From Candidatus Bathyarchaeota archaeon (lineage in GTDB: Archaea; Thermoproteota; Bathyarchaeia; 40CM-2-53-6): a stretch of DNA of 64,000 nucleotides. The notes below the pieces were generated by a model, which was not told the origin of the DNA, did not search any database, and worked only from the letters and a program-made list of their open reading frames with translations. A program made the translations under genes and the position numbers. Below, one piece after another: positions 36,416 through 46,245 of the stretch. The stretch spans positions 192,001 to 256,000 of the forward strand of contig CAVPLU010000004.1 in NCBI GenBank assembly GCA_963706285.1, read 5' to 3'. The number at the start of each line of letters is the position of its first letter. Within the stretch, counting starts at the first letter, position 1.

Positions 36416-37252
36416 TTAGCGAGTTAGCTCAACCATCTCCTCAACCGTCATGATGTCACGGCGAATCCCCAGATGTGAGAGGCTGATTGCCAATCGCGTG
36501 ACTTGCGGGGGCCGCACGCCTGACTGTTCAAGCGTTCCTGGATCGGACAGAATCCGTCTAGCTGATTCGTAGGCCGTTATCTCTCCATTGCACATCACAG
36601 CAACTCTCTCGCATTCTCTAGCAACAAATTCCATGTCGTGGGATATGATCACGACAGTCTTCCCGTCACGTTTTAGTTGTTCGAGAATCGAACCGAGTAG
36701 ACGTAACCCTCGGTAATCCTGTCCAGCGTTAGGCTCGTCCATTACCACAATATTCGGATCCATAGCGAGAACTGATGCGAGGCATAGCATCTTCCTTTGG
36801 CCATACGTCATGTTGTATGGGTGTTCCAATATGAAAGGCAACAGGCCAACCATGGACAGCGCGTTGTGTGTCGCACGTTCTATGCTTGCTTCATCCATAC
36901 CGATGTTCTTGGGCCCAAAGGCCACTTCCTCGATGACCGAGGACTCAAACAGCTGATCTTCAGGATTCTGAAAGACGTAACCCACCTCTCGAGCCATCTG
37001 ACTGGCAGACCTCTTCGAAGTGTCTATGCCAACCACGCTCACAGTCCCGGAAGTAGGTTTGAGGAGACTGTTCAAATGCTTTGCAAGCGTTGTCTTGCCA
37101 GCTCCATTCCTTCCTATGAGTGCCACAGTGCTCCCGGCCTCAATCTGGAGGTTCACATTCCTGAGCGCCTCGCGCCCGCTAGAATATTGATAGTGAAGAT
37201 TCTCAACGGAGACAGCCAATGGCACGTTACTCACCACAGAACTGTTTCTCAA
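36416..37252 (-). CDS. ecfA2: ECF transporter ATPase
   Basis: GRNGAGKTT, FQNPEDQLF, DEPNAGQD, SHDM. Confidence 0.9.
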   Translation of the reverse strand: MRNSSVVSNVPLAVSVENLHYQYSSGREALRNVNLQIEAGSTVALIGRNGAGKTTLAKHLNSLLKPTSGTVSVVGIDTSKRSASQMAREVGYVFQNPEDQLFESSVIEEVAFGPKNIGMDEASIERATHNALSMVGLLPFILEHPYNMTYGQRKMLCLASVLAMDPNIVVMDEPNAGQDYRGLRLLGSILEQLKRDGKTVVIISHDMEFVARECERVAVMCNGEITAYESARRILSDPGTLEQSGVRPPQVTRLAISLSHLGIRRDIMTVEEMVELTR

Positions 37253-38090
37253 TCATCTCGGCCGCCTGGGACTCGTCGAGAGGATAGTCACCTCTCCACA
37301 GACCCTTTTCGTCCAACAGACCAGCTACCTGAGCGACTTGGGTATGTCGAACGCCAAGTTTCTCTGCGAACCGAACCTTCCTTGAGAACTCCTGCGGGGA
37401 ATCTAGCGCAACAATCTTGCCGTTGTTGAGGATACAGATCCTACTTGCATATTGAACGAGTGTCTCAGGTTGATTAGAAACCAAGATCGTCGTCATGGCG
37501 TATCTCTCATGAACAGAGTGGACTGCTCTCATGACGGAGACGGCACCCTCTGGATCCAGTAGTTCAGTCGGTTCATCCAAAATCATGATCTGAGGTCGCA
37601 TGGCAATCGCAGTAGCGAGGGAGAGTCTCTGCTGTTCTCCACCGGACAACTCGAAAGGCGCCCTTGTCTCAAATCCCGACAAGCCGACTGCGTCAAGCGC
37701 TTCTGCGATCCTATCCACCATAGCTTCCCTTGGGACTCCTAGGTTCTGAAGTCCAAAAGCCACTTCCTCCTCGACCGTCATGGCTGAACCGGTCATCTGT
37801 GAACGAGGGTCCTGAAACACGATTCCAACGAAACCCGATAGCTCCGACACCTCGCTTTTCCCAGTGTCAAAGCCTTTCACGCTGACAGTCCCTCGCATGG
37901 TTCCTTCGATGACATGTGGGACAAGTCCATTCAGTGAATGACAGAGTGTTGACTTGCCCGCGCCTGAGGGGCCAGTAATCCCGACGAACTCGTTATCCAT
38001 CACTTCTATGGTGATTCCATCCAGTGCCCAATCAACCCGTGAAAGGTAGCGAAAAGCCAGGTCAGAGATTGTGATCGCAGCGGAGGCCAT
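37227..38090 (-). CDS. ecfA1: ECF transporter ATPase
   Basis: Probable start ATG 38090; GPSGAGKST, FQDP, LSGGEQQR, DEPT. Confidence 0.9.
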   Translation of the reverse strand: MASAAITISDLAFRYLSRVDWALDGITIEVMDNEFVGITGPSGAGKSTLCHSLNGLVPHVIEGTMRGTVSVKGFDTGKSEVSELSGFVGIVFQDPRSQMTGSAMTVEEEVAFGLQNLGVPREAMVDRIAEALDAVGLSGFETRAPFELSGGEQQRLSLATAIAMRPQIMILDEPTELLDPEGAVSVMRAVHSVHERYAMTTILVSNQPETLVQYASRICILNNGKIVALDSPQEFSRKVRFAEKLGVRHTQVAQVAGLLDEKGLWRGDYPLDESQAAEMIEKQFCGE

Positions 38091-38309
38091 CAGGCGAGTT
38101 CCCTTATACACTCTAAAATGTCTCTTACATAAAGCGGATTTTGGACTCAGCCTAGTATTGGCAGACATGTCGAATCGGGCGAACCGCACGAGCGGCTCGG
38201 CTAATCGCAAGTTATTAACTTGAGAACTCATTCCAATCACCGAGGCCAAGTTCGTGGCCGGTTCGGCGAGTAGGCCTCGGAGCCAAGTGGCGACGACTGG
38301 CAGGAGGGG

Positions 38310-38475
38310 TCTGGTCCTTGAGTTGTCCTTCGCAGCGATATACGCAGTGGCCGTTGTGGCGCTTGGCCCTATTAGTTATGCTGTGATCCAGATCCGCATT
38401 GCAGATGCCCTGATTCCGCTCTCCATTGTCTTTGGTCTCCCGGTGGTCTTAGACGTCACATTGGGAAACATCGCT
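38310..38475 (+). pseudogene. Truncated QueT-like ECF S component fragment
   Basis: FAAIYAVAVVALGPISYAVIQIRIADALIPL...TLGNIA resembles the QueT N-terminus; hydrophobic similarity ends after about 55 codons and the ORF runs antisense into the tRNA. Confidence 0.55.
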
Positions 38476-38572
38476 GAAAAGCGGCTGAGCGAATTAGCTC
38501 GAGAGGTCAATCAATTCAATCTCAAATCCAGAGCAGATCGCCATCAGATCAAGACGATTATCAGAGAGATTA

Positions 38573-38678
38573 TGGAGCCCCGGCCGAGGTTTGAACTCGG
38601 GACCCTTGCCTCTTCAGTCTTCGTTACCAAGGCAATGCTCTCGGCTGCAAAGCATCTACCAGGCTGAGCCACCGGGGC
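38573..38678 (-). tRNA. tRNA-Thr(GGT) with two introns (D-arm about 22/23, 16 nt; 37/38, 13 nt), CCA encoded
   Basis: GCCCCGG/CCGGGGC, U73; removing ATGCTTTGCAGCCGAG and ACGAAGACTGAAG gives TTGCC-TTGGTAA-GGCAA. Confidence 0.88.
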
Positions 38679-38926: not shown

Positions 38927-39781
38927 TTGGTTAAGCGATGTCCAACATGCGGATACAACAACAGAGACGATGCCGTCTTCTGCTCAAGCTGCGGCGGTTC
39001 ACTTGCTGCCGCTGGAGCACCAATGATGAAACCAGTGCCGTCAGTTCGTGTGGTAACTCCGGTCACGTCAGGCGCCCCAATGAGGGTTCCAGCACCAGGA
39101 ATGTGTTTCTACCACCCGAGCCTTCCAGCTGTGTACATATGCAACCGTTGTGGCAGAGCAATCTGCCGTGACGACTCGAAGTCCTACATGGACCTAGTCC
39201 TCTGCCCACAGTGCTACCAAGGAATTGTGCCGCCGATGGCTATGGCTCCCCAAGCACCACAATACGCGCCAGCACCACAATACGCGCCAGCACCACAGTA
39301 TGGACCAGCATACGCACCACCACAATTTGCGCCTGGACCACAATTTGCCGGACCGATGATGGGCCCTATGGGAGCTCCCATGATGGGAGCCGGACCTGCA
39401 AGGTCGCTATGGGCTTTCATACTCGCCTTGGTTTCAGGAATTCTTGTGCTGCTCAACGCGGGACTGCTGCTAGCGTGGCAATTCTACGGCGGAACATTCC
39501 TTTGGGCGAACATATTCTTCTGGATCTGCAACATTGACCGTTCCACAGGATGTCCACTGCCTTCAGGATCTACTGCGACTGGCACGATCACATTCGTGAT
39601 CGGAGCAATCATAGGCCTAATCATAATCGTCGGATCGATTATGATGATCCTAGGATACGGCACAATCGGCAGCCTCATCATTTTCCCGCTAGCCGTCTTC
39701 AGCCTGATCATAGGCGGCGGCTTCATCGCAGGCTTCGTACTAGGCATCATCGCCGGTATCATGGGCATGTTAGGGCGATAG
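38927..39781 (+). CDS. Zinc-ribbon + B-box-like zinc finger + P/Q/Y/M-rich linker + multi-TM membrane protein
   Basis: CPTCG...FCSSCG; CFYHP...CNRCGRAICRDD...CPQC; APQY repeats; 3-4 C-terminal TM helices; GGAGG SD. Confidence 0.85.
   Translation: MVKRCPTCGYNNRDDAVFCSSCGGSLAAAGAPMMKPVPSVRVVTPVTSGAPMRVPAPGMCFYHPSLPAVYICNRCGRAICRDDSKSYMDLVLCPQCYQGIVPPMAMAPQAPQYAPAPQYAPAPQYGPAYAPPQFAPGPQFAGPMMGPMGAPMMGAGPARSLWAFILALVSGILVLLNAGLLLAWQFYGGTFLWANIFFWICNIDRSTGCPLPSGSTATGTITFVIGAIIGLIIIVGSIMMILGYGTIGSLIIFPLAVFSLIIGGGFIAGFVLGIIAGIMGMLGR
39254..39307 (+). repeat. 18-nt in-frame tandem repeat x3 (APQYAP/APQYGP)
   Basis: gcaccacaatacgcgcca twice, then gcaccacagtatggacca. Confidence 0.9.
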
Positions 39782-39823: not shown

Positions 39824-41478
39824 TTGGTCGTGTGTTCCGTGTCGTATGTGGCGATCTCCGGCCAAGTAGCCGAGAAGTTGGTTAGGGAGGCGAGAGATCA
39901 TCCAGAAGAGCAGGTCGTCGGTGTGTTGCTCGGCGGACAGTTCGGCAGCACCATTTCCATTGAAGATGCAGCGACAGGACCTGCCAACGCGGACGCCACA
40001 AAGGCAACGCTGACCGGGGATTCGATCGCAAGAATAGCGGATGACATAATCAATAAGAGAATAAGAGGAAGTATCGTTGGTTGGTATCATTCTCATGTTC
40101 GCGGTGGCGTCTTCATGTCCGAGACGGACGTGGAAACGCAGCTCAAACTTCAACAGTTTTCTCCTCTGGTGACAGCAATGGTGATTGACACGCAAACAGG
40201 AACATCAGGATTCTTCAGGGCTGACCCGAAGACGCGAGAGGCGGTGTCTGTGCCTTCGCAGAACGCAAGGGCCGAAGTTCATCGCCCGGATCCGCATCCT
40301 ACTATGCGCCTGAGCGAGCGACGTACCCGCAATATCCGACGCCCATGACCCAGGGCCCGTCAACTCGTACACTGTTGCTGGCACTTCTGATTATCACATT
40401 GGCCGTAACAGGAGGCATCCTGGCGCTGGTATACTACCGCAACCCAACAGTCTCCGGTGGCAGTGGTAATCTCGCGATAACTCATGCTCCACCTAGCGGG
40501 CCATTCACGATCGGGAGCCCTATAACGATCGATGCAAACGTCACCGGCTCTAAACCTACTGAACGTCACGTTGGCCTACAAGATAATCGAAGCAGCTCCC
40601 AACTCCCAGGGCGGATTGATCATTGGAAACTTGGTTCAAGTGCCCATGCTTCCGAGATCCGCAGGAGTGCACGAACCACCTGCACGTATTCGTACACTTT
40701 GCCGTCGTCTGAAATATCCGGAGTCTATGTTCAGTACTACATTTCCGCCTTCGACACTGCTTCCCCGCCTAATATTGTTCGCACTGATATCTACACTCTC
40801 AATGTGGGAGATTTCAGTTGGCGTGATGACACGACCGAGGTAGTTGCCATTCGACAAGCCCAGGCTGGCATATCACTTCCCTTGGATTCGATTAATGGCT
40901 TCAGTGACCTCATCACCATCAGAATCCTCACTCAACCGCCGCTAGGAGTTCGAATAGTTCCTATCAGCACGCAAGTTCGTCCTCCAAACGCCGCCAACCT
41001 AATAATAACCAGCACTGAAAACGCGCAGATCAGTTACAAGTACCCGATTCAAGTCGATGCCGTGTATACTGTACGCAACGTGCAGGTAATACGCTCCACA
41101 ATACTGCAGCTCACGTTGACTGACATCGACATCGCTGTCTCGCCAACCTACGCGAAGACCCAGCAATGTTATGCCTCCGATAGCTGCCTTGACTCGAATG
41201 AGTTCGCACAGTACACTGTGACGCTTACGATCTACGACGGATTTACCGCCCCGAACGGTATCCAACTGTTCCCAAGTGGTCTTCCGGATCATACTCGCTA
41301 CGAGATTCTGTTGGTCAGTCAGAAGATTGGCACGGACGAAACGCAGACATTAACTTACTCTCTCATAGTTCGCGCTGATACAGATTCCACTGTGAACAGG
41401 TACCTCTTTTCAATGATAGTCAGGGCCGGAAGTATCACACACAGTGTGGACAACATACAGTTTGAGATCGTGGACTGA
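39824..41478 (+). CDS. JAMM/MPN (Rpn11-like) domain + linker + TM helix + Ig-like ectodomain; probably one gene split near 40278 (alternatively two coupled genes)
   Basis: GWYHSHVRGGVFMSETD and AMVID; the alternative frame from about 40279 reads SSPGSASYYAPERATYPQYPTPMTQGPSTR straight into the TM helix; further compensating shift about 40555-40680; many N-x-S/T sequons after the TM. Confidence 0.78.
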
Positions 41479-41519: not shown

Positions 41520-41771
41520 TTGAAACTCTTCGTTCAGGCACCTATTGGGCCGCAGACAGGGCTGGCTGAGATTGATGTTATACCGGATCATACAGTCGGA
41601 GAGATCAAGCAGCAGGTATGCACCTCGTTCGGAGTTGACCCTGCTACGGTCGCGTTGATGTACGGCGGCATCATACTTGACGAGTCCAGCACAGTCAGCA
41701 GAGCCGGGATCCCTGAGAATGCCCAACTCGCACTGATGCCCTACAATATCATCGGTGGCAACGGAAGGTGA
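41520..41771 (+). CDS. Ubiquitin-like modifier precursor (ends GG-NGR)
   Basis: 83 aa, TVGEIKQQV...LMYGGIILDESSTVSRAGI ubiquitin-fold pattern, di-Gly plus 3-residue extension; GGAGGTGA SD. Confidence 0.88.
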   Translation: MKLFVQAPIGPQTGLAEIDVIPDHTVGEIKQQVCTSFGVDPATVALMYGGIILDESSTVSRAGIPENAQLALMPYNIIGGNGR

Positions 41772-42361
41772 ACCTTCCGCTTCTCTACAAGGAGAAGAAT
41801 TTCACAAACCACCAATTCCCAACGGTAATGGCTCTCAATGATCCGCCCACGGCATACGAGGGTATGCTCAGGTGCGAGAAGGGAGAAGTGAAGACTCTCG
41901 CCGAGAAGAAGATCTGGCCCTTCACCGAGTATGCGGACTGGAACAGGTTCAGGCTAGAACTTCCGGACGAGTACCCCGTGAAGCCTCCCAAAGCGATTTG
42001 GCTCTCCGACATCTCCCACCCAAACATAGTCCCCAAGGTCATGAATGCCGTCTGCGTCTCTATCATCGGCGAGAACTGGCGTCCCGACCTGAAGCTTGTC
42101 TCTGTAGTGAACGCTCTTTACTACCTCCTGTCTGATCCAAACCCTGACAACGTATTCGACCACCCCGATTGCCTCAAGGCTGCAAACGTCTGCAGATCAT
42201 ACGGATTTCCAAAAATGACAAAGCGAAAGACCGCGACACAGCAGGGCGATCTTGTTCGATTCAACATCGTTCCTGTACCTCAAACGCGGCCAAGAGAGCC
42301 TGCACCGACGGGAGATGTGATACGATTTCGAATCCTTGACAGGGAGCGAAAGGAACATTAG
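41768..42361 (+). CDS. E2 ubiquitin-conjugating enzyme
   Basis: FRLELPDEYPVKPPKA, HPNI, catalytic AVCVSII, NWRP, LLSDPNPD; GTGA overlap with the Ub gene. Confidence 0.92.
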   Translation: MNLPLLYKEKNFTNHQFPTVMALNDPPTAYEGMLRCEKGEVKTLAEKKIWPFTEYADWNRFRLELPDEYPVKPPKAIWLSDISHPNIVPKVMNAVCVSIIGENWRPDLKLVSVVNALYYLLSDPNPDNVFDHPDCLKAANVCRSYGFPKMTKRKTATQQGDLVRFNIVPVPQTRPREPAPTGDVIRFRILDRERKEH

Positions 42362-43618
42362 TTGAAAGTAAAGCTCTCGATGCCGTCTGTTCGAGACATA
42401 GAACTTGACGTTCCTTCAACAGCAACGATCAGTCACCTAAAGGAAAAGGCATGCAAGAAGTTAGGAATCGAGTCTGACCTGACAAGCATCCTATGTGATG
42501 GTGCTCGGATTGATGGGAAGCGAAGCGTCGGCAGCCTCCATCTCAAGCAGAAGCTCCTGACAGTCGACTATCTCTGGGCTCGTCATCTAATACTTTGGGG
42601 GCCGGATGGGCAGAAACGACTGAGAGGTGCAACTGTACTTGTCGCTGGTGCGGGAGCGATTGGTAATGAGGTTGCGAAGAACCTTGCAATGCTCGGCGTC
42701 AAGCGCCTACTGATCATCGATAACGATACCGTCGAACTTTCGAACACGAGCCGAATGATCTTCTTCGATCGCAAGAGCCTGGGCTTGAACAAGGCGGAAA
42801 TGCTCGCCAGAGGAATCACCCAGAAGTTCCCCTATGTTGAGGCAATTGCATGGACCGGTGCACTCGAAGACCTCCCACTCGAACACATCCTAAGTGCCGA
42901 CGTGATCGTGTGCGGTCTAGACAACGTACTCTCCAGGATATACCTAGCACAAGTTTCCAGAAGGTACTCCATACCAATGGTAGACGGAGGCATCGTTGGG
43001 TATCGCGGACGTGTCCAAGTCTACGTTCCCCCAGACACGCCATGCCCGCTGTGCACATACCCATCCTCCGAATACGGCCGCATTGCAGGGCTCAGGAACC
43101 CCTGCGATGGGCCAGCTGAAGAAACGAAGGTCCCATCTCTTCCGACGACGATCTCGTTGGTTTCTTCGATCCAATGCCAAGAGGCGACCAAACTGATCGT
43201 TGGTTACCAAAGCTACTTGAGAACTGCGATTTGGCCGAAAGAGACCGGAGAACCGCTCAGGGGCGTGCTGATGATCGACTTGCAGTACAATCGTTACAGC
43301 CTGATGGAGATCAAGCGGAATAAGAGCTGCGTTGTGTGCGGGGAAAACGGGCTGGCCGAGAAGCCTGTGCCAGTGCTGACGATCCCGATAGGAGAAATTC
43401 GCGACTCAACCTCCAGACTGCATCAGATGGTTGCTAGCAGAATGAAACTGACAGCACAGCAAGTTATGTTGTTCTTGCAGCGTCAGAACAAGACAGTGCG
43501 AGTCGAGAAAGGGCAGTCTCTTCGGCGGGCACGCATCGGTGTGGGGAGCGTCATCACCGCGGTCGCACAAGATGGACCCGACTACAGTGAAGCTGTGGTC
43601 AGGCTCACAAAGCCCTAA
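42362..43618 (+). CDS. E1 ubiquitin-activating enzyme with N-terminal Ubl domain and C-terminal UFD-like domain
   Basis: GAGAIGNEVAKNL, DNDTVELSNTSR, GLDN, zinc pairs CPLC and CVVC, candidate catalytic Cys in RNPCD; start directly abuts the E2 stop. Confidence 0.9.
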   Translation: MKVKLSMPSVRDIELDVPSTATISHLKEKACKKLGIESDLTSILCDGARIDGKRSVGSLHLKQKLLTVDYLWARHLILWGPDGQKRLRGATVLVAGAGAIGNEVAKNLAMLGVKRLLIIDNDTVELSNTSRMIFFDRKSLGLNKAEMLARGITQKFPYVEAIAWTGALEDLPLEHILSADVIVCGLDNVLSRIYLAQVSRRYSIPMVDGGIVGYRGRVQVYVPPDTPCPLCTYPSSEYGRIAGLRNPCDGPAEETKVPSLPTTISLVSSIQCQEATKLIVGYQSYLRTAIWPKETGEPLRGVLMIDLQYNRYSLMEIKRNKSCVVCGENGLAEKPVPVLTIPIGEIRDSTSRLHQMVASRMKLTAQQVMLFLQRQNKTVRVEKGQSLRRARIGVGSVITAVAQDGPDYSEAVVRLTKP

Positions 43619-43728: not shown

Positions 43729-44109
43729 ATGCGACAGTGTTTATCCTGTGGAAGTAGAAACTCCGATGACGCAGCCTTCTGTAGCATGTGTGGGCTCTCC
43801 TTTGCTGGAAGCCAACCGCAGCAGTATATGCAACCAGTCGGAGCGGCGATGAAACCCGTTCCAATTGTGAAAACGATCACCCCATTGGCGCAGGCAGGCC
43901 CGCAGCAGTGGCCAGTTCCAATGGCTCGGCCGCAGATGACGATCGGATCCTGCTCTTTTCACCCTGAGCTTCCGGCATCGTACATTTGCCTTCGATGCGG
44001 CAAGCAGATATGCTTCTCCTGCACGAAAACCTACGGTCAGCTGGCGATATGCCCTGAGTGCTACTGGGCACTTGCACCACGTACAGGCACAGCGCAGCCG
44101 GGACGCTGA
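43729..44109 (+). CDS. Soluble zinc-ribbon + B-box-like protein, paralog of 38927-39781
   Basis: CLSCG...FCSMCG; CSFHP...CLRCGKQICFSC...CPEC; shared MKPVP linker motif. Confidence 0.85.
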   Translation: MRQCLSCGSRNSDDAAFCSMCGLSFAGSQPQQYMQPVGAAMKPVPIVKTITPLAQAGPQQWPVPMARPQMTIGSCSFHPELPASYICLRCGKQICFSCTKTYGQLAICPECYWALAPRTGTAQPGR

Positions 44110-44120
44110 AACGATCTTTC

Positions 44121-45727
44121 CTACGCGAGGAGCCCTTTCCTCTTCAGTCGCTCCGTGGATAGCTTGACCTCATTCACGGACAACCCAAGATCCTTCGAAG
44201 CTTGGCTAAGTGATATCTCACCATTTCGTTTCGCGATATATTGGTAGACTCGGTTATCCAGCTCCTCAAAGCCAACGGCGGCTGATGCCTGACCTCGCTT
44301 CCGGGCTCCAGCAACCGCGGTCCTGCGTCGTCTGACACCGGAGCTAAGCGATGAGCCCAGCCTTGCAAAAGATCTCGGGCGCTTCGCAATTATGAATATG
44401 ACAGCAGTGACGATTGTTGCTGCAGCGCCCAAAGAGACAATGAAGATCCACAAGGGTGCATAGTCTGTGACCCACTGTGCCTCTACTATGTAGGGTCGAT
44501 CCATCGTGACCTCATTTTCACCCGGTGGGACAGCGCTAATCACGTTCGAGGAATTGAGGCGCCAGCCAGCGAGCGTATGTTTCACTAATAGTTCTGACCC
44601 GCTGTAAGTCACATCAAACCTTGCTTTTTCCCCATCAAGATACCAGCCAGTACCTGTCGGTTCCCCAAATGAGGACGTTACCAGAAGGTAGTACTGTGTT
44701 TGATAGATCAACCGTACGTTGTGCGGTTTGTTCATCACAAGCTCCGCCGATGTTCCTGGCTGAGTCATGCCATCGATATTCCATGAAAGCCAGACAAATC
44801 GTTGAACCGAGCTTCCCGGGATTGAGATTATTTGAGGAACAGGTCCAAGAGAAGCAGTCTGGCCAGCATCGTACCAGGTGCTGTTAGGGGCTGAGATTTT
44901 CTGAGCAATGTCTGGTGGATCGTAAGTGACGTCCAATTTGTATTGTGTCTTGTATCTTGCAGTCACTGACTTGGGTCCATCCATGCGAGCAGACCCGTGG
45001 GAATCGGTACCTGTGTAGTCTCCTACCCATTGAACAAAGACCTGTCGAGTATCGGTTCCATTTGTTCCTTTAGGTGCAAGGAAATCTGCCGTAGATCCAG
45101 CGTCGAGCCAGAGAGTTGAGGGCGAGAAAAGTCCGACCGGATCATACGATATTCGAAGGATATACTGTGTCTTCCAGGTGGCAACGGCTTTCTTCGGACC
45201 ATTCATGACTATCGAGTCGGAGATTATTCCCTGCCCCGAGGCATCCTGTCCCCACTTGACAAACAGATATCTCACTCCTTCGGATCCGCTTGTCATGTTC
45301 GTGTCCAACCTGGCTTGAGCAGTTGTTCCCCCGTCGTACCAATCACTTCTAGACGGCGCTCCGTACTGAGAGACGACTTCGAGGTAGTATTGTGCCTTGT
45401 AGGTGAATGTGTGGGTGCCAGCTCCCGTGAAGGACCAGAGGTTGTCTCTGCATTGATACCTGGTTCCGTTGGCCCCGCCCACGTTTAGGTCGACGCTGAG
45501 CGTGTGCGCACCGCCAGGAGAGATGCTTAGGGTCTTCGTGTCGCCTGTTGCAATCGTTCCGTTTAGTATGCCGTCCAGGTAATATTGAGTTCTTGCTCCG
45601 CTGGAAGCCCTACCACTGTGAAGGAGACGGAGTACGCTTGAGCCTTCACGAGTGTCGGTGCGGTGACGAGAGAAATGAGGATCAGTGCGTCAAGTGCCAA
45701 GATGGCCAATCTAGTCCTCGACAACAT
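44121..45727 (-). CDS. Surface protein with about 4 divergent InlB-B-like repeats, TM helix and cytoplasmic winged helix; frameshift near 45600
   Basis: Signal peptide from ATG 45727 (MLSRTRLAILALDALILISLV), repeated QYxLxV...WYDxGxxA units, TM, C-terminal LDNRVYQYIAKRNGEISLSQASKDLGLSVNEVKLSTERLKRKGLL. Confidence 0.8.
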
Positions 45728-45939: not shown

Positions 45940-46245
45940 ATGGCTTCCACTCCGTACACGCGAGGCAGAAGTAGAGAATACCAAGTGCTGAAGAAACTGA
46001 GACGCGAAGGGTGGTACTGCAGCAGGAGCGCAGCATCTCACGGCCCCGTGGACGTCTTCGCTGGGAAGAACGGACTCGTCCGCATGATTCAAGTGAAGAG
46101 CGGGCAAGCCAGACTGAGGCCTGGAGACAGGGAGACCCTCAAGCTTTGGGCACAAGCTTACGCCGGAGTAGCTGAGGTCTGGTATTTTGGCAAGCGCGCA
46201 GGCACAAAAATAGAAGTGATTCTCGACGCAAGAACACGACTCTAA
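45940..46245 (+). CDS. hjc: Hjc-like Holliday junction resolvase (PD-(D/E)xK)
   Basis: RGRSREY, RSAAS, PVDVFA, IQVKS. Confidence 0.75.
   Translation: MASTPYTRGRSREYQVLKKLRREGWYCSRSAASHGPVDVFAGKNGLVRMIQVKSGQARLRPGDRETLKLWAQAYAGVAEVWYFGKRAGTKIEVILDARTRL

Follow-up and report, generated by a model that had tools for sequence, protein, structure and literature searches.

The ubiquitin cassette in the window

The window analyzed here is a stretch of 64,000 nucleotides from a metagenome-assembled genome (MAG) of the Bathyarchaeia (Candidatus Bathyarchaeota archaeon, assembly GCA_963706285.1, contig CAVPLU010000004.1, positions 192,001 to 256,000 of the forward strand). It carries on its plus strand a cassette of genes for a ubiquitin system, and positions given below without a contig or locus name are those of the window. 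Two genes of this cassette encode proteins composed of a zinc ribbon, a linker, and a B-box-like zinc finger. They are indicated here as "ZBM" for the membrane-anchored protein of 284 residues encoded at 38927-39781 and "ZBS" for the soluble protein of 126 residues encoded at 43729-44109. An earlier inspection of the letters of this DNA, the sequence-only reading, had proposed that these two genes bracket the ubiquitin locus and that their products replace a missing RING-type ligase (E3). The bracketing agrees with the gene order, ZBM being the first and ZBS the last gene around those for a JAB-membrane protein, ubiquitin, the conjugating enzyme E2, and an activating enzyme E1 with a ubiquitin-like (Ubl) domain.

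ZBM is followed by a JAB/MPN+ metalloprotease domain (39824-40348; Pfam JAB, expectation value E = 9.4e-14), the motif HSHx7SxxD of which is readable in the translation, and by an open reading frame (ORF) for the rest of the JAB protein, which spans the membrane and extends outside the cell (40345-41478; no Pfam family) and which is separated from the protease domain in the window by an apparent frameshift. The next genes encode a ubiquitin homolog ending in GG-NGR (41520-41771; Pfam ubiquitin, E = 8.5e-10); an E2 with the UBC fold, the HPN..C motif, and a conserved C-terminal tail (41768-42361; Pfam UQ_con, E = 1e-15); and an E1 with an N-terminal Ubl domain (42362-43618; ThiF, E = 9.6e-48; ubiquitin, E = 2.1e-6 at residues 5 to 64). 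ZBS comes directly after E1. The row from ZBM to ZBS is co-directional, with tight or overlapping gene borders, and faces a convergent gene on the minus strand (44121-45482) for a surface protein that has repeats, a membrane helix, and a winged helix in its cytoplasmic tail (weak Pfam matches to HTH_24/TrmB and Flg_new_2).

The best solved relatives of the window E2 are eukaryotic UBC chains, and those of E1 are eukaryotic UBA1. Residues H84, P85, N86, and C96 of E2 are invariant in its orthologs. In 22 ubiquitin orthologs, G79 and G80 are invariant and are followed by tails of 0 to 9 residues.

ZBM and ZBS are paralogs of the same architecture

With 48/117 identities (41%; BLASTP, E = 1e-28), the similarity between ZBS and ZBM is far beyond chance, and the two proteins are paralogs. 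The ribbon, linker motif, and finger that the sequence-only reading had attributed to both were found in both ORFs. Zn_Ribbon_1 is above its curated Pfam cut-off of 25 bits in both (28.8 bits in ZBS and 28.7 bits in ZBM). NCBIfam contains no family for either protein, and the ESM Atlas, searched with ZBM, returned Bathyarchaeota clusters with zinc-ribbon labels only.

The ribbon of ZBM (38939-38998) consists of C5, C8, C19, and C22 in the spacing C-x2-C-x3-N-x6-C-x2-C, with a predicted local distance difference test value (pLDDT) of 76 to 81; C5, C8, N12, C19, and C22 are invariant in two family alignments. The linker motif from K35 to P45 (KPVPSVRVVTP; 39029-39061) is situated in a stretch predicted to be disordered, with a pLDDT below 50 over residues 30 to 55. 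Positions K35, P36, V37, P38, S39, V40, V42, V43, and P45 are nevertheless invariant in 12 ZBM orthologs, and K35 is nearly so in a larger set of 22. Because it is invariant yet predicted to be disordered, this motif resembles a short linear binding motif. The eight-ligand finger of ZBM comprises C60, H63, C72, C75, C80, D83, C93, and C96 (39104-39214; pLDDT, 78 to 85). The membrane domain, from about residue 156 to residue 284 (39392-39778), has no Pfam family; a Kyte-Doolittle scan gave four hydrophobic segments starting at residues 156, 214, 237, and 259, and the AlphaFold2 (AF2) model has five helices (161-180, 191-203, 217-241, 245-263, and 267-282).

In ZBS, where the same type of scan gave no hydrophobic segment, the ribbon is formed by C4, C7, C18, and C21 (43738-43791), invariant in the family alignment. 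The linker motif reaches from K42 to P52 (KPVPIVKTITP; 43852-43884; pLDDT about 50), and the finger comprises C75, H78, C87, C90, C95, C98, C108, and C111 (43951-44061), as deduced from the family alignment and a pattern match. The pLDDT of the AF2 model is about 95 at residues 1 to 25 and 88 to 97 at residues 72 to 117. All these features of both proteins are on the plus strand. The finger pattern C-x2-H-x8-C-x2-C-x4-C-x2-[C/D]-x9-C-x2-C occurs without gaps in 25/25 family members, with the sixth ligand being mostly Asp in ZBM and Cys in ZBS, and the family consensus of the linker is KPVPxV[RK]xxTP.

A length-restricted search for longer fused forms of ZBS or of residues 1 to 110 of ZBM gave no match, which is weak evidence. 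Fusions to the linker and finger came only from a profile search (see below): a protein of 983 residues (P0042) combines a WD40 propeller, an InlB-type repeat, a membrane helix, the linker RPVPSVRV with a ZBM-like finger, and a Ser/Thr kinase. Since P0042 has the linker and the finger and lacks the ribbon, linker and finger travel as one module.

The cassette is conserved, and the finger co-occurs with E2

Conservation of the cassette was evaluated in two overlapping sets of loci and two samples of genomes. A survey of 41 relatives for E2 and the finger yielded matches from which 20 loci were fetched. A scan of a genome collection with an alignment of ZBM only gave 80 loci, 22 of which matched the ribbon alone and were dropped, leaving 58 Bathyarchaeia loci; the cassette counts rest on the 43 of them with at least 5.2 kb of downstream sequence. 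Part of the collection loci belong to genomes that were also surveyed, so that the two counts overlap. The class sample contained 201 evenly drawn Bathyarchaeia genomes, and the phylum sample contained 401 genomes. Because related genomes are not independent, the genome counts indicate tight coupling and not a number of events.

The order ZBM, JAB-membrane, ubiquitin, E2, E1, (ZBS), and convergent neighbor was found in 18 of the 20 fetched loci, the other two being paralog sites. In the collection, 39/43 loci contained the genes for ubiquitin, E2, and E1 with ZBM as the first gene, and the remaining 4/43 were paralog sites lacking the cassette. The small ribbon-finger protein was encoded directly after E1 in 35 of these 39 cassettes, and a homolog of the convergent surface protein followed the cassette in all 39. 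ZBS and ZBM are, hence, integral and conserved members of the cassette.

Of the 41 surveyed relatives, 29 contain E2, and the finger was found in exactly these 29; four others matched by their ribbon only. The sequence-only reading had suggested checking for co-occurrence with RING-less ubiquitin operons, and in the class sample (n = 201), finger and E2 coincided almost perfectly: 36 genomes contain both the finger and E2, 1 genome (G152; 98% complete) the finger only, none E2 only, and 164 neither. All carriers but one belong to the order of the window; the exception (G051), from another order, has ZBM, JAB, ubiquitin, E2, and E1 in a row. Neither finger nor E2 was found in some lineages within the window's order (genera g2, g3, and g5 and family f9).

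A third paralog is encoded in the window genome at C4:447774-448196 on the minus strand, among housekeeping genes. It contains a ribbon and a finger but no linker motif. Two genes away is a membrane protein with an HExxH-like motif, a possible site-2-type protease. All genomes in which orthologs of the third paralog were found also carry the cassette.

Sister cassettes of other Thermoproteota contain a RING pair

Within the phylum sample, E2 homologs were found in 60 genomes outside the Bathyarchaeia. Four RING-type loci were read, one each from families f42, f47, f57, and f59. Three of the four contain the genes for a divergent JAB, ubiquitin, E2, and E1, followed by one for a RING-H2 protein of 75 to 80 residues that abuts E1 or overlaps its end (E of about 1e-10 with zf-RING_2). 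The same three loci encode, some 1.3 kb past this small RING, a protein of 231 to 250 residues that has a RING-H2 at its C terminus and four hydrophobic segments (L136:9380-10132, L137:9430-10125, and L139:9295-10020). In the fourth locus, the same RING pair is encoded elsewhere on the chromosome.

The distribution of the RING pair is complementary to that of ZBS and ZBM. A zf-RING_2 match was obtained in 59 of the 60 E2-bearing genomes outside the Bathyarchaeia, with two hits in 54 of them, typically about 2 kb apart, and in none of the 7 E2-bearing Bathyarchaeia of the phylum sample. The finger was found in all 7 of these Bathyarchaeia at E ≤ 3e-21 and in 11 of the 60 others, where matches were weaker only (1e-11 to 8e-5) and never adjacent to E2. 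In the class sample, no RING was above the Pfam cut-off in any of the 201 Bathyarchaeia genomes, and the four weak hits were all in E2-less genomes, in agreement with the earlier claim that a RING is missing where ZBS and ZBM are present. Two kinds of cassette exist, one with a soluble and a membrane-bound RING protein and one with a soluble and a membrane-bound B-box protein; the soluble member is encoded after E1 in both, and the B-box pair matches the RING pair in position and architecture.

Relation of the finger and the ribbon to known zinc-binding domains

B-box domains of type 2 follow the consensus C-x2-H-x7/8-C-x2-[C/D]-x4-C-x2-C, with Cys and Asp as alternatives at one ligand. Ligands 1 to 6 of the finger fit this spacing, and its last pair is Cys-based and positioned after a longer loop. 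Of 25 family members, 23 are recognized by the Pfam model zf-B_box (PF00643) at E ≤ 0.01, the lowest E being 1.8e-6, and one close relative (P0008) bears a precomputed PF00643 label. A search of 1.84 billion proteins with a 46-residue profile of the finger gave 475 representative clusters at E ≤ 0.001. Among the best 150 profile neighbors, 99 are recognized by zf-B_box (E ≤ 0.001; lowest, 2.4e-16) and 18 by ANCHR-like_BBOX. One or more hydrophobic segments were seen in 99 of the 150, and 2 of the 150 have an Rce1-like protease as a fusion partner. As judged from these profiles, the finger belongs at the family level to a prokaryotic clade of B-boxes combined with membrane segments.

Searches of solved structures gave distant matches. 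Foldseek returned no match in the PDB at E ≤ 0.001, with FYVE-type and LIM fingers in the best rows at E of 0.5 to 1. When PDB sequences were searched with the family profile, the best rows of the finger were TraR (E = 0.007) and TFIIH p44 (E = 0.06), and TRIM28 appeared at E = 0.19, none of these being usable for the finger.

A RING identity of ZBS or ZBM was considered and rejected, with no zf-RING match in either protein. The only hit of this kind, to Prok-RING_1, is weak (E = 0.0019) and covers the ribbon of ZBM, and zf-RING_2 has no match at E ≤ 0.1 in the whole window genome. The middle spacing C-x2-C-x4-[C/H]-x2-[C/D] is common to the finger and archaeal RINGs. The idea that ZBM and the membrane RING proteins inherited their anchors from a shared ancestor was also considered and found no support by hhalign.

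The N-terminal ribbon has the spacing of the RanBP2 type, including the Asn residue. The Pfam model Zn_ribbon_RanBP matches ZBM at E = 0.034 and 4 of 25 family members at E ≤ 0.01, and the ZBS ribbon aligns in VIA-align with RanBP2/NZF structures at Z of 2.5 to 3.2 and a root mean square deviation of 0.7 to 1.6 over 26 to 27 residues. Ubiquitin-binding NZF fingers carry a Thr-Phe pair after the second Cys; this pair is absent from the ribbons, which have G-Y in ZBM and G-S in ZBS at this site.

Additional observations on the locus and its flanks

JAB and the next ORF form one protein of 500 to 555 residues in most relatives and also in a second full copy of the cassette, which is situated on a 33-kb contig of the window genome (C20:9374-14595). 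In the window, the JAB gene is short of one base near 40278, which splits the gene (region 40250-40350), and a contig of DNA run X1 carries the extra C at this position. The split may reflect either a fault in the assembly or a genuine frameshift. The second copy is about 91% identical to the window in the DNA of the JAB-membrane gene, 94% in the ZBS protein, and 98% in the E2 protein. It may represent a second population binned into the MAG, the contamination of which was estimated at 7.5%, rather than a true duplication. The convergent surface protein has 453 residues in the window compared to 564 to 581 in relatives of the same genus, and an ORF of 54 residues at 45563-45727 resembles its signal peptide, so that this gene (region 44121-45727, minus strand) may also be split in the window.

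About half of the ubiquitin orthologs stop exactly at GG, and the rest have tails of 1 to 9 residues. K30 is the single invariant lysine of ubiquitin in the 22 orthologs, and position 2 is Lys or Arg. The C-terminal tail of E2 (42240-42361, residues from about 160 to 197) contains the strand-like motifs VRFNIVPVP and VIRFRIL; F165, N166, P169, P171, and F187 are invariant in 22 orthologs, and the PVP core recalls the linker motif of ZBS and ZBM.

Upstream of the cassette, two ORFs for ABC-type ATPases, with Walker-type motifs read by eye, and a QueT-like transporter fragment are situated within 36416-38667, and a small ORF resembling an Hjc-type resolvase follows downstream at 45940-46245. None of these has an apparent link to the cassette. 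No PADLOC model matches ZBS, ZBM, E2, or ubiquitin, and the PADLOC models for E1-E2 match the window E1 at E = 1e-16. No RNA run contained half of the sequence words searched for. Contigs of the RNA libraries X15 and X16 cover parts of ZBM, JAB, ubiquitin/E2, and ZBS at 90 to 99% likeness; they were not counted as expression because DNA carry-over is possible and they come from relatives.

Possible function of ZBS and ZBM

The cassette may be understood as a RING-less, membrane-associated ubiquitin system of the eukaryotic type in one order of the Bathyarchaeia, with ZBS and ZBM as its cross-brace fingers. ZBS and ZBM would then be E3-like or adaptor subunits of this RING-less cassette, with binding to E2 or ubiquitin and ligase activity presumed. 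A probability of roughly 0.5 is assigned to this reading, the best of those considered. The small RING protein of Caldiarchaeum subterraneum is a proven E3 that was needed for substrate ubiquitylation in a cascade reconstituted in vitro (PMC5654768), and ZBS and ZBM are for this reason read as functional counterparts of the RING pair. The earlier claim that the fingers stand in for the RING is supported in part and has on its side the cassette membership, the coupling to E2, the complementarity with the RING pair, and the matching positions, and against it a predicted structure that is not specific for a B-box.

If this reading is correct, the B-box-like finger would engage the thioester between E2 and ubiquitin, and the disordered linker and the ribbon may bind a further partner by strand addition, which could be ubiquitin, the Ubl domain of E1, JAB, or a substrate. 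ZBM would bring the reaction to the membrane, where the JAB deubiquitinase is tethered as well, and ZBS may serve soluble targets or pair with ZBM. A hint at a partner comes from domain shuffling. In one locus (L089/L043) of the lineage lacking ZBS, the JAB protein has an N-terminal ribbon of its own; in another locus (L104), a ribbon is found on the membrane part, with JAB as a free protein. The ribbon may therefore be tied to JAB or to something that JAB also needs.

A comparison of the finger with the RING-H2 of the membrane RING proteins by hhalign gave a weak alignment with a probability of only 25% (E = 7.8e-4). In this weak alignment, ligands 3 to 8 are in register, a nearly invariant Tyr residue (Y87 in ZBM, Y102 in ZBS) falls on the Trp of the RING, and the Pro of the CPxC motif falls on the RING Pro. 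These Trp and Pro positions and the hydrophobic residue two positions after ligand 1 are presumably those that contact E2 in RING-E2 complexes. Their counterparts in the finger, as far as the weak alignment indicates, are Tyr or Phe, the nearly invariant Tyr, and the mostly conserved Pro. The residue after the last Cys of the finger is Tyr or Phe, and active RINGs carry an Arg or Lys residue as a "linchpin" after the last ligand.

The low hhalign probability and this Tyr or Phe residue both weigh against a role of ZBS and ZBM in place of the RING pair, as do the following results. By hhalign, the membrane domain of ZBM could not be aligned with those of the membrane RING proteins. The zf-B_box scores of ZBS (20.9 bits; E = 4.1e-4) and ZBM (17.2 bits) are below the curated cut-off of 24.1 bits. 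In VIA-align, FYVE-type fingers were best, with Z of 4.7 to 3.8, LIM and PHD fingers also appeared, and one RING had a Z of 2.6; no B-box chain was among the 50 best rows, and no row reached a Z of at least 5. The B-box identity proposed by the sequence-only reading thus holds as a profile link at the family level, but the window proteins themselves remain under the Pfam cut-off, and their structure matches are those of a generic cross-brace. ZBS is missing from 4 of the 39 cassettes. Finger paralogs outside the ubiquitin cassette exist, which touches on the independence from ubiquitin loci that the sequence-only reading had named as contrary evidence, although all but one of these paralogs are in cassette-bearing genomes in the samples searched. 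Related genomes are not independent, and the counts overstate the number of evolutionary events.

Binding of E2 or ubiquitin by finger, ribbon, or linker is inferred. Co-folding of E2, residues 1 to 80 of ubiquitin, and ZBS, performed with separate alignments and no controls, gave an ipSAE of 0.01 in both runs at a mark of 0.32, which speaks neither for nor against such binding. Two further contrary points concern the proposed activity. Most members of the prokaryotic B-box family at large are fused to membrane segments, and the family reportedly acts together with membrane peptidases and not with ubiquitin; a passage in PMC4506424, reporting on Burroughs 2011, ties prokaryotic B-boxes to the folding, stability, and proteolysis of membrane proteins. 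Bacterial operons for E1, E2, Ubl, and protease have been described without an E3 (PMC10557695), so that a missing RING need not be replaced.

A bolder version of the same reading states that a B-box finger can be the working ligase of a minimal archaeal cascade without any RING, and that the soluble and membrane-bound paralogs pair at the membrane and, together with JAB, mark and unmark surface or membrane proteins. This version is speculative and rather unlikely as a whole.

Alternatively, ZBS and ZBM may be partners of the membrane-tethered JAB, as proposed for other prokaryotic B-box proteins found with membrane peptidases. Their finger or ribbon would bind peptide tails or ubiquitin and hand them to JAB, and they would control the processing of pro-ubiquitin or deconjugation at the membrane, instead of being involved in ligation. 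The constant position of ZBM immediately before the JAB-membrane gene would fit, as would the ribbons shuffled onto JAB (L089/L043) or its membrane part (L104), the membrane segments in 99 of the best 150 profile neighbors with two Rce1-like protease fusions, and the link of prokaryotic B-boxes to membrane-protein proteolysis in the passage of PMC4506424. A partnership with JAB leaves unexplained why the fingers are complementary to the RING pair and why ZBS takes the place of the small RING after E1. Moreover, the RING-type cassettes keep a membrane finger protein although their JAB is soluble, and the many ubiquitin orthologs that end at GG need no processing. This explanation is considered unlikely.

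Similarly doubtful is that ZBS and ZBM are targets of the modification, regulated by ubiquitin on a conserved Lys in the linker or finger, or that they are its readers, with a ribbon similar to RanBP2/NZF that recognizes ubiquitin on other proteins. The linker Lys K35 of ZBM, invariant in 12 and nearly so in 22 orthologs, is located in a stretch predicted to be disordered, but this Lys is not kept in all ZBS orthologs. The ribbon has the RanBP2-type spacing and matches NZF/RanBP2 structures, with Z of only 2.5 to 3.2; it lacks the Thr-Phe pair of the NZF fingers that bind ubiquitin, and ribbons of the Zn_Ribbon_1 family are very common at the N termini of unrelated membrane proteins. P0042, which joins linker and finger to a receptor Ser/Thr kinase, is what a signaling module might look like. 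A role as substrate does not explain the swap with the RING.

It is very improbable that ZBS and ZBM are ordinary zinc-ribbon membrane proteins that take no part in the pathway and are kept beside the ubiquitin genes by descent alone. Such a view could point to synteny, which within a single order may persist without any function, to the paralogs at other sites of the genome, and to G152, which has a finger protein but no E2. Against it, the joint presence or absence recurs (g2, g3, g5, and f9 lack both, and a second order has both), the genes from ZBM to ZBS are tightly spaced or overlapping with strongly conserved motifs, and the distribution is complementary to that of RING pairs. The complementarity with the RING and the position after E1 argue against all three of these alternatives, although the first two, a partnership with JAB and a role as target or reader, keep some probability.

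Novelty and implications

In a search of the literature, neither the present cassette nor any archaeal ubiquitin operon with a B-box was found described; Supplementary Fig. 1 of PMC5654768, an image the text of which contains no "Bathy" or "RBG," may show such clusters. The cassette may be seen as the known archaeal cascade of the eukaryote-like type, with a B-box pair in place of the RING pair and a membrane-bound deubiquitinase. The role of B-box domains in TRIM ligases is still debated, and we know of no natural ubiquitin cascade that relies on a B-box alone. The cassette comprises about seven genes, with one E2, one E1, and a B-box pair where its sisters have a RING pair. Because the cassette is small and the B-box pair is at the place of the RING pair, only a few recombinant proteins would be needed to test a B-box for E3 activity.

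A further indication given by the cassette is that archaea other than the Asgard group have ubiquitylation linked to the membrane, and the membrane RING protein of the sister cassettes suggests that this membrane theme is older and wider than the variant of the Bathyarchaeia. If the fingers are indeed ligases, the cassette would be an archaeal forerunner of the ubiquitylation of membrane proteins of the MARCH or ERAD-like type, and B-box and RING would be interchangeable modules for engaging E2 that were swapped in place during archaeal evolution. If ZBS and ZBM prove to be partners of JAB or substrates, they would nevertheless be the first ubiquitin-linked clade of prokaryotic B-boxes.

Comparison with known systems

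The ubiquitin operon of Candidatus Caldiarchaeum subterraneum (Hennell James et al. 2017; PMC5654768) resembles the cassette of the window in the clustering of a GG-ended ubiquitin, often with a propeptide, one E2, one E1, and a JAB/MPN+ protein, and also in a small cross-brace zinc-finger protein that is encoded right after E1. In contrast to this operon, the window contains no RING of the srfp kind after E1 but two proteins with ribbon and B-box-like finger instead, its JAB is fused to a membrane/surface domain and co-directional with the other genes, its E1 has an N-terminal Ubl domain, and a winged-helix surface protein is always adjacent. The sister RING cassettes hold a four-helix membrane RING protein, which was not found mentioned in the passages of PMC5654768 consulted.

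The B-box domains of type 2 (PF00643) of eukaryotic TRIM/RBCC proteins share with the finger the spacing of ligands 1 to 6 and the Cys/Asp alternative. The last pair of the finger is C-x2-C after a loop of nine residues and not His-based after a shorter loop, and unlike TRIM proteins, ZBS and ZBM have no RING or coiled coil alongside. Prokaryotic membrane B-box proteins are closer to ZBM in having an N-terminal B-box, membrane helices, and an adjacent membrane-associated peptidase, which is JAB in this case. Burroughs, Iyer and Aravind reportedly described this family in 2011 as unrelated to ubiquitin. The finger of the window differs from these B-boxes in being tied to ubiquitin, E2, and E1 and in the added ribbon and conserved linker.

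Eukaryotic membrane RING ligases such as MARCH, Hrd1, and Doa10 have a cytoplasmic cross-brace finger on a helical anchor and use a soluble E2. ZBM resembles these types in the working principle only. Finally, the bacterial Bil/Bub defense operons (PMC10557695) are like the window in their compact cluster for E1, E2, Ubl, and protease. The enzymes of the window are nearer to eukaryotic ones, and its cassette occupies a conserved chromosomal place across the order and not a variable island.

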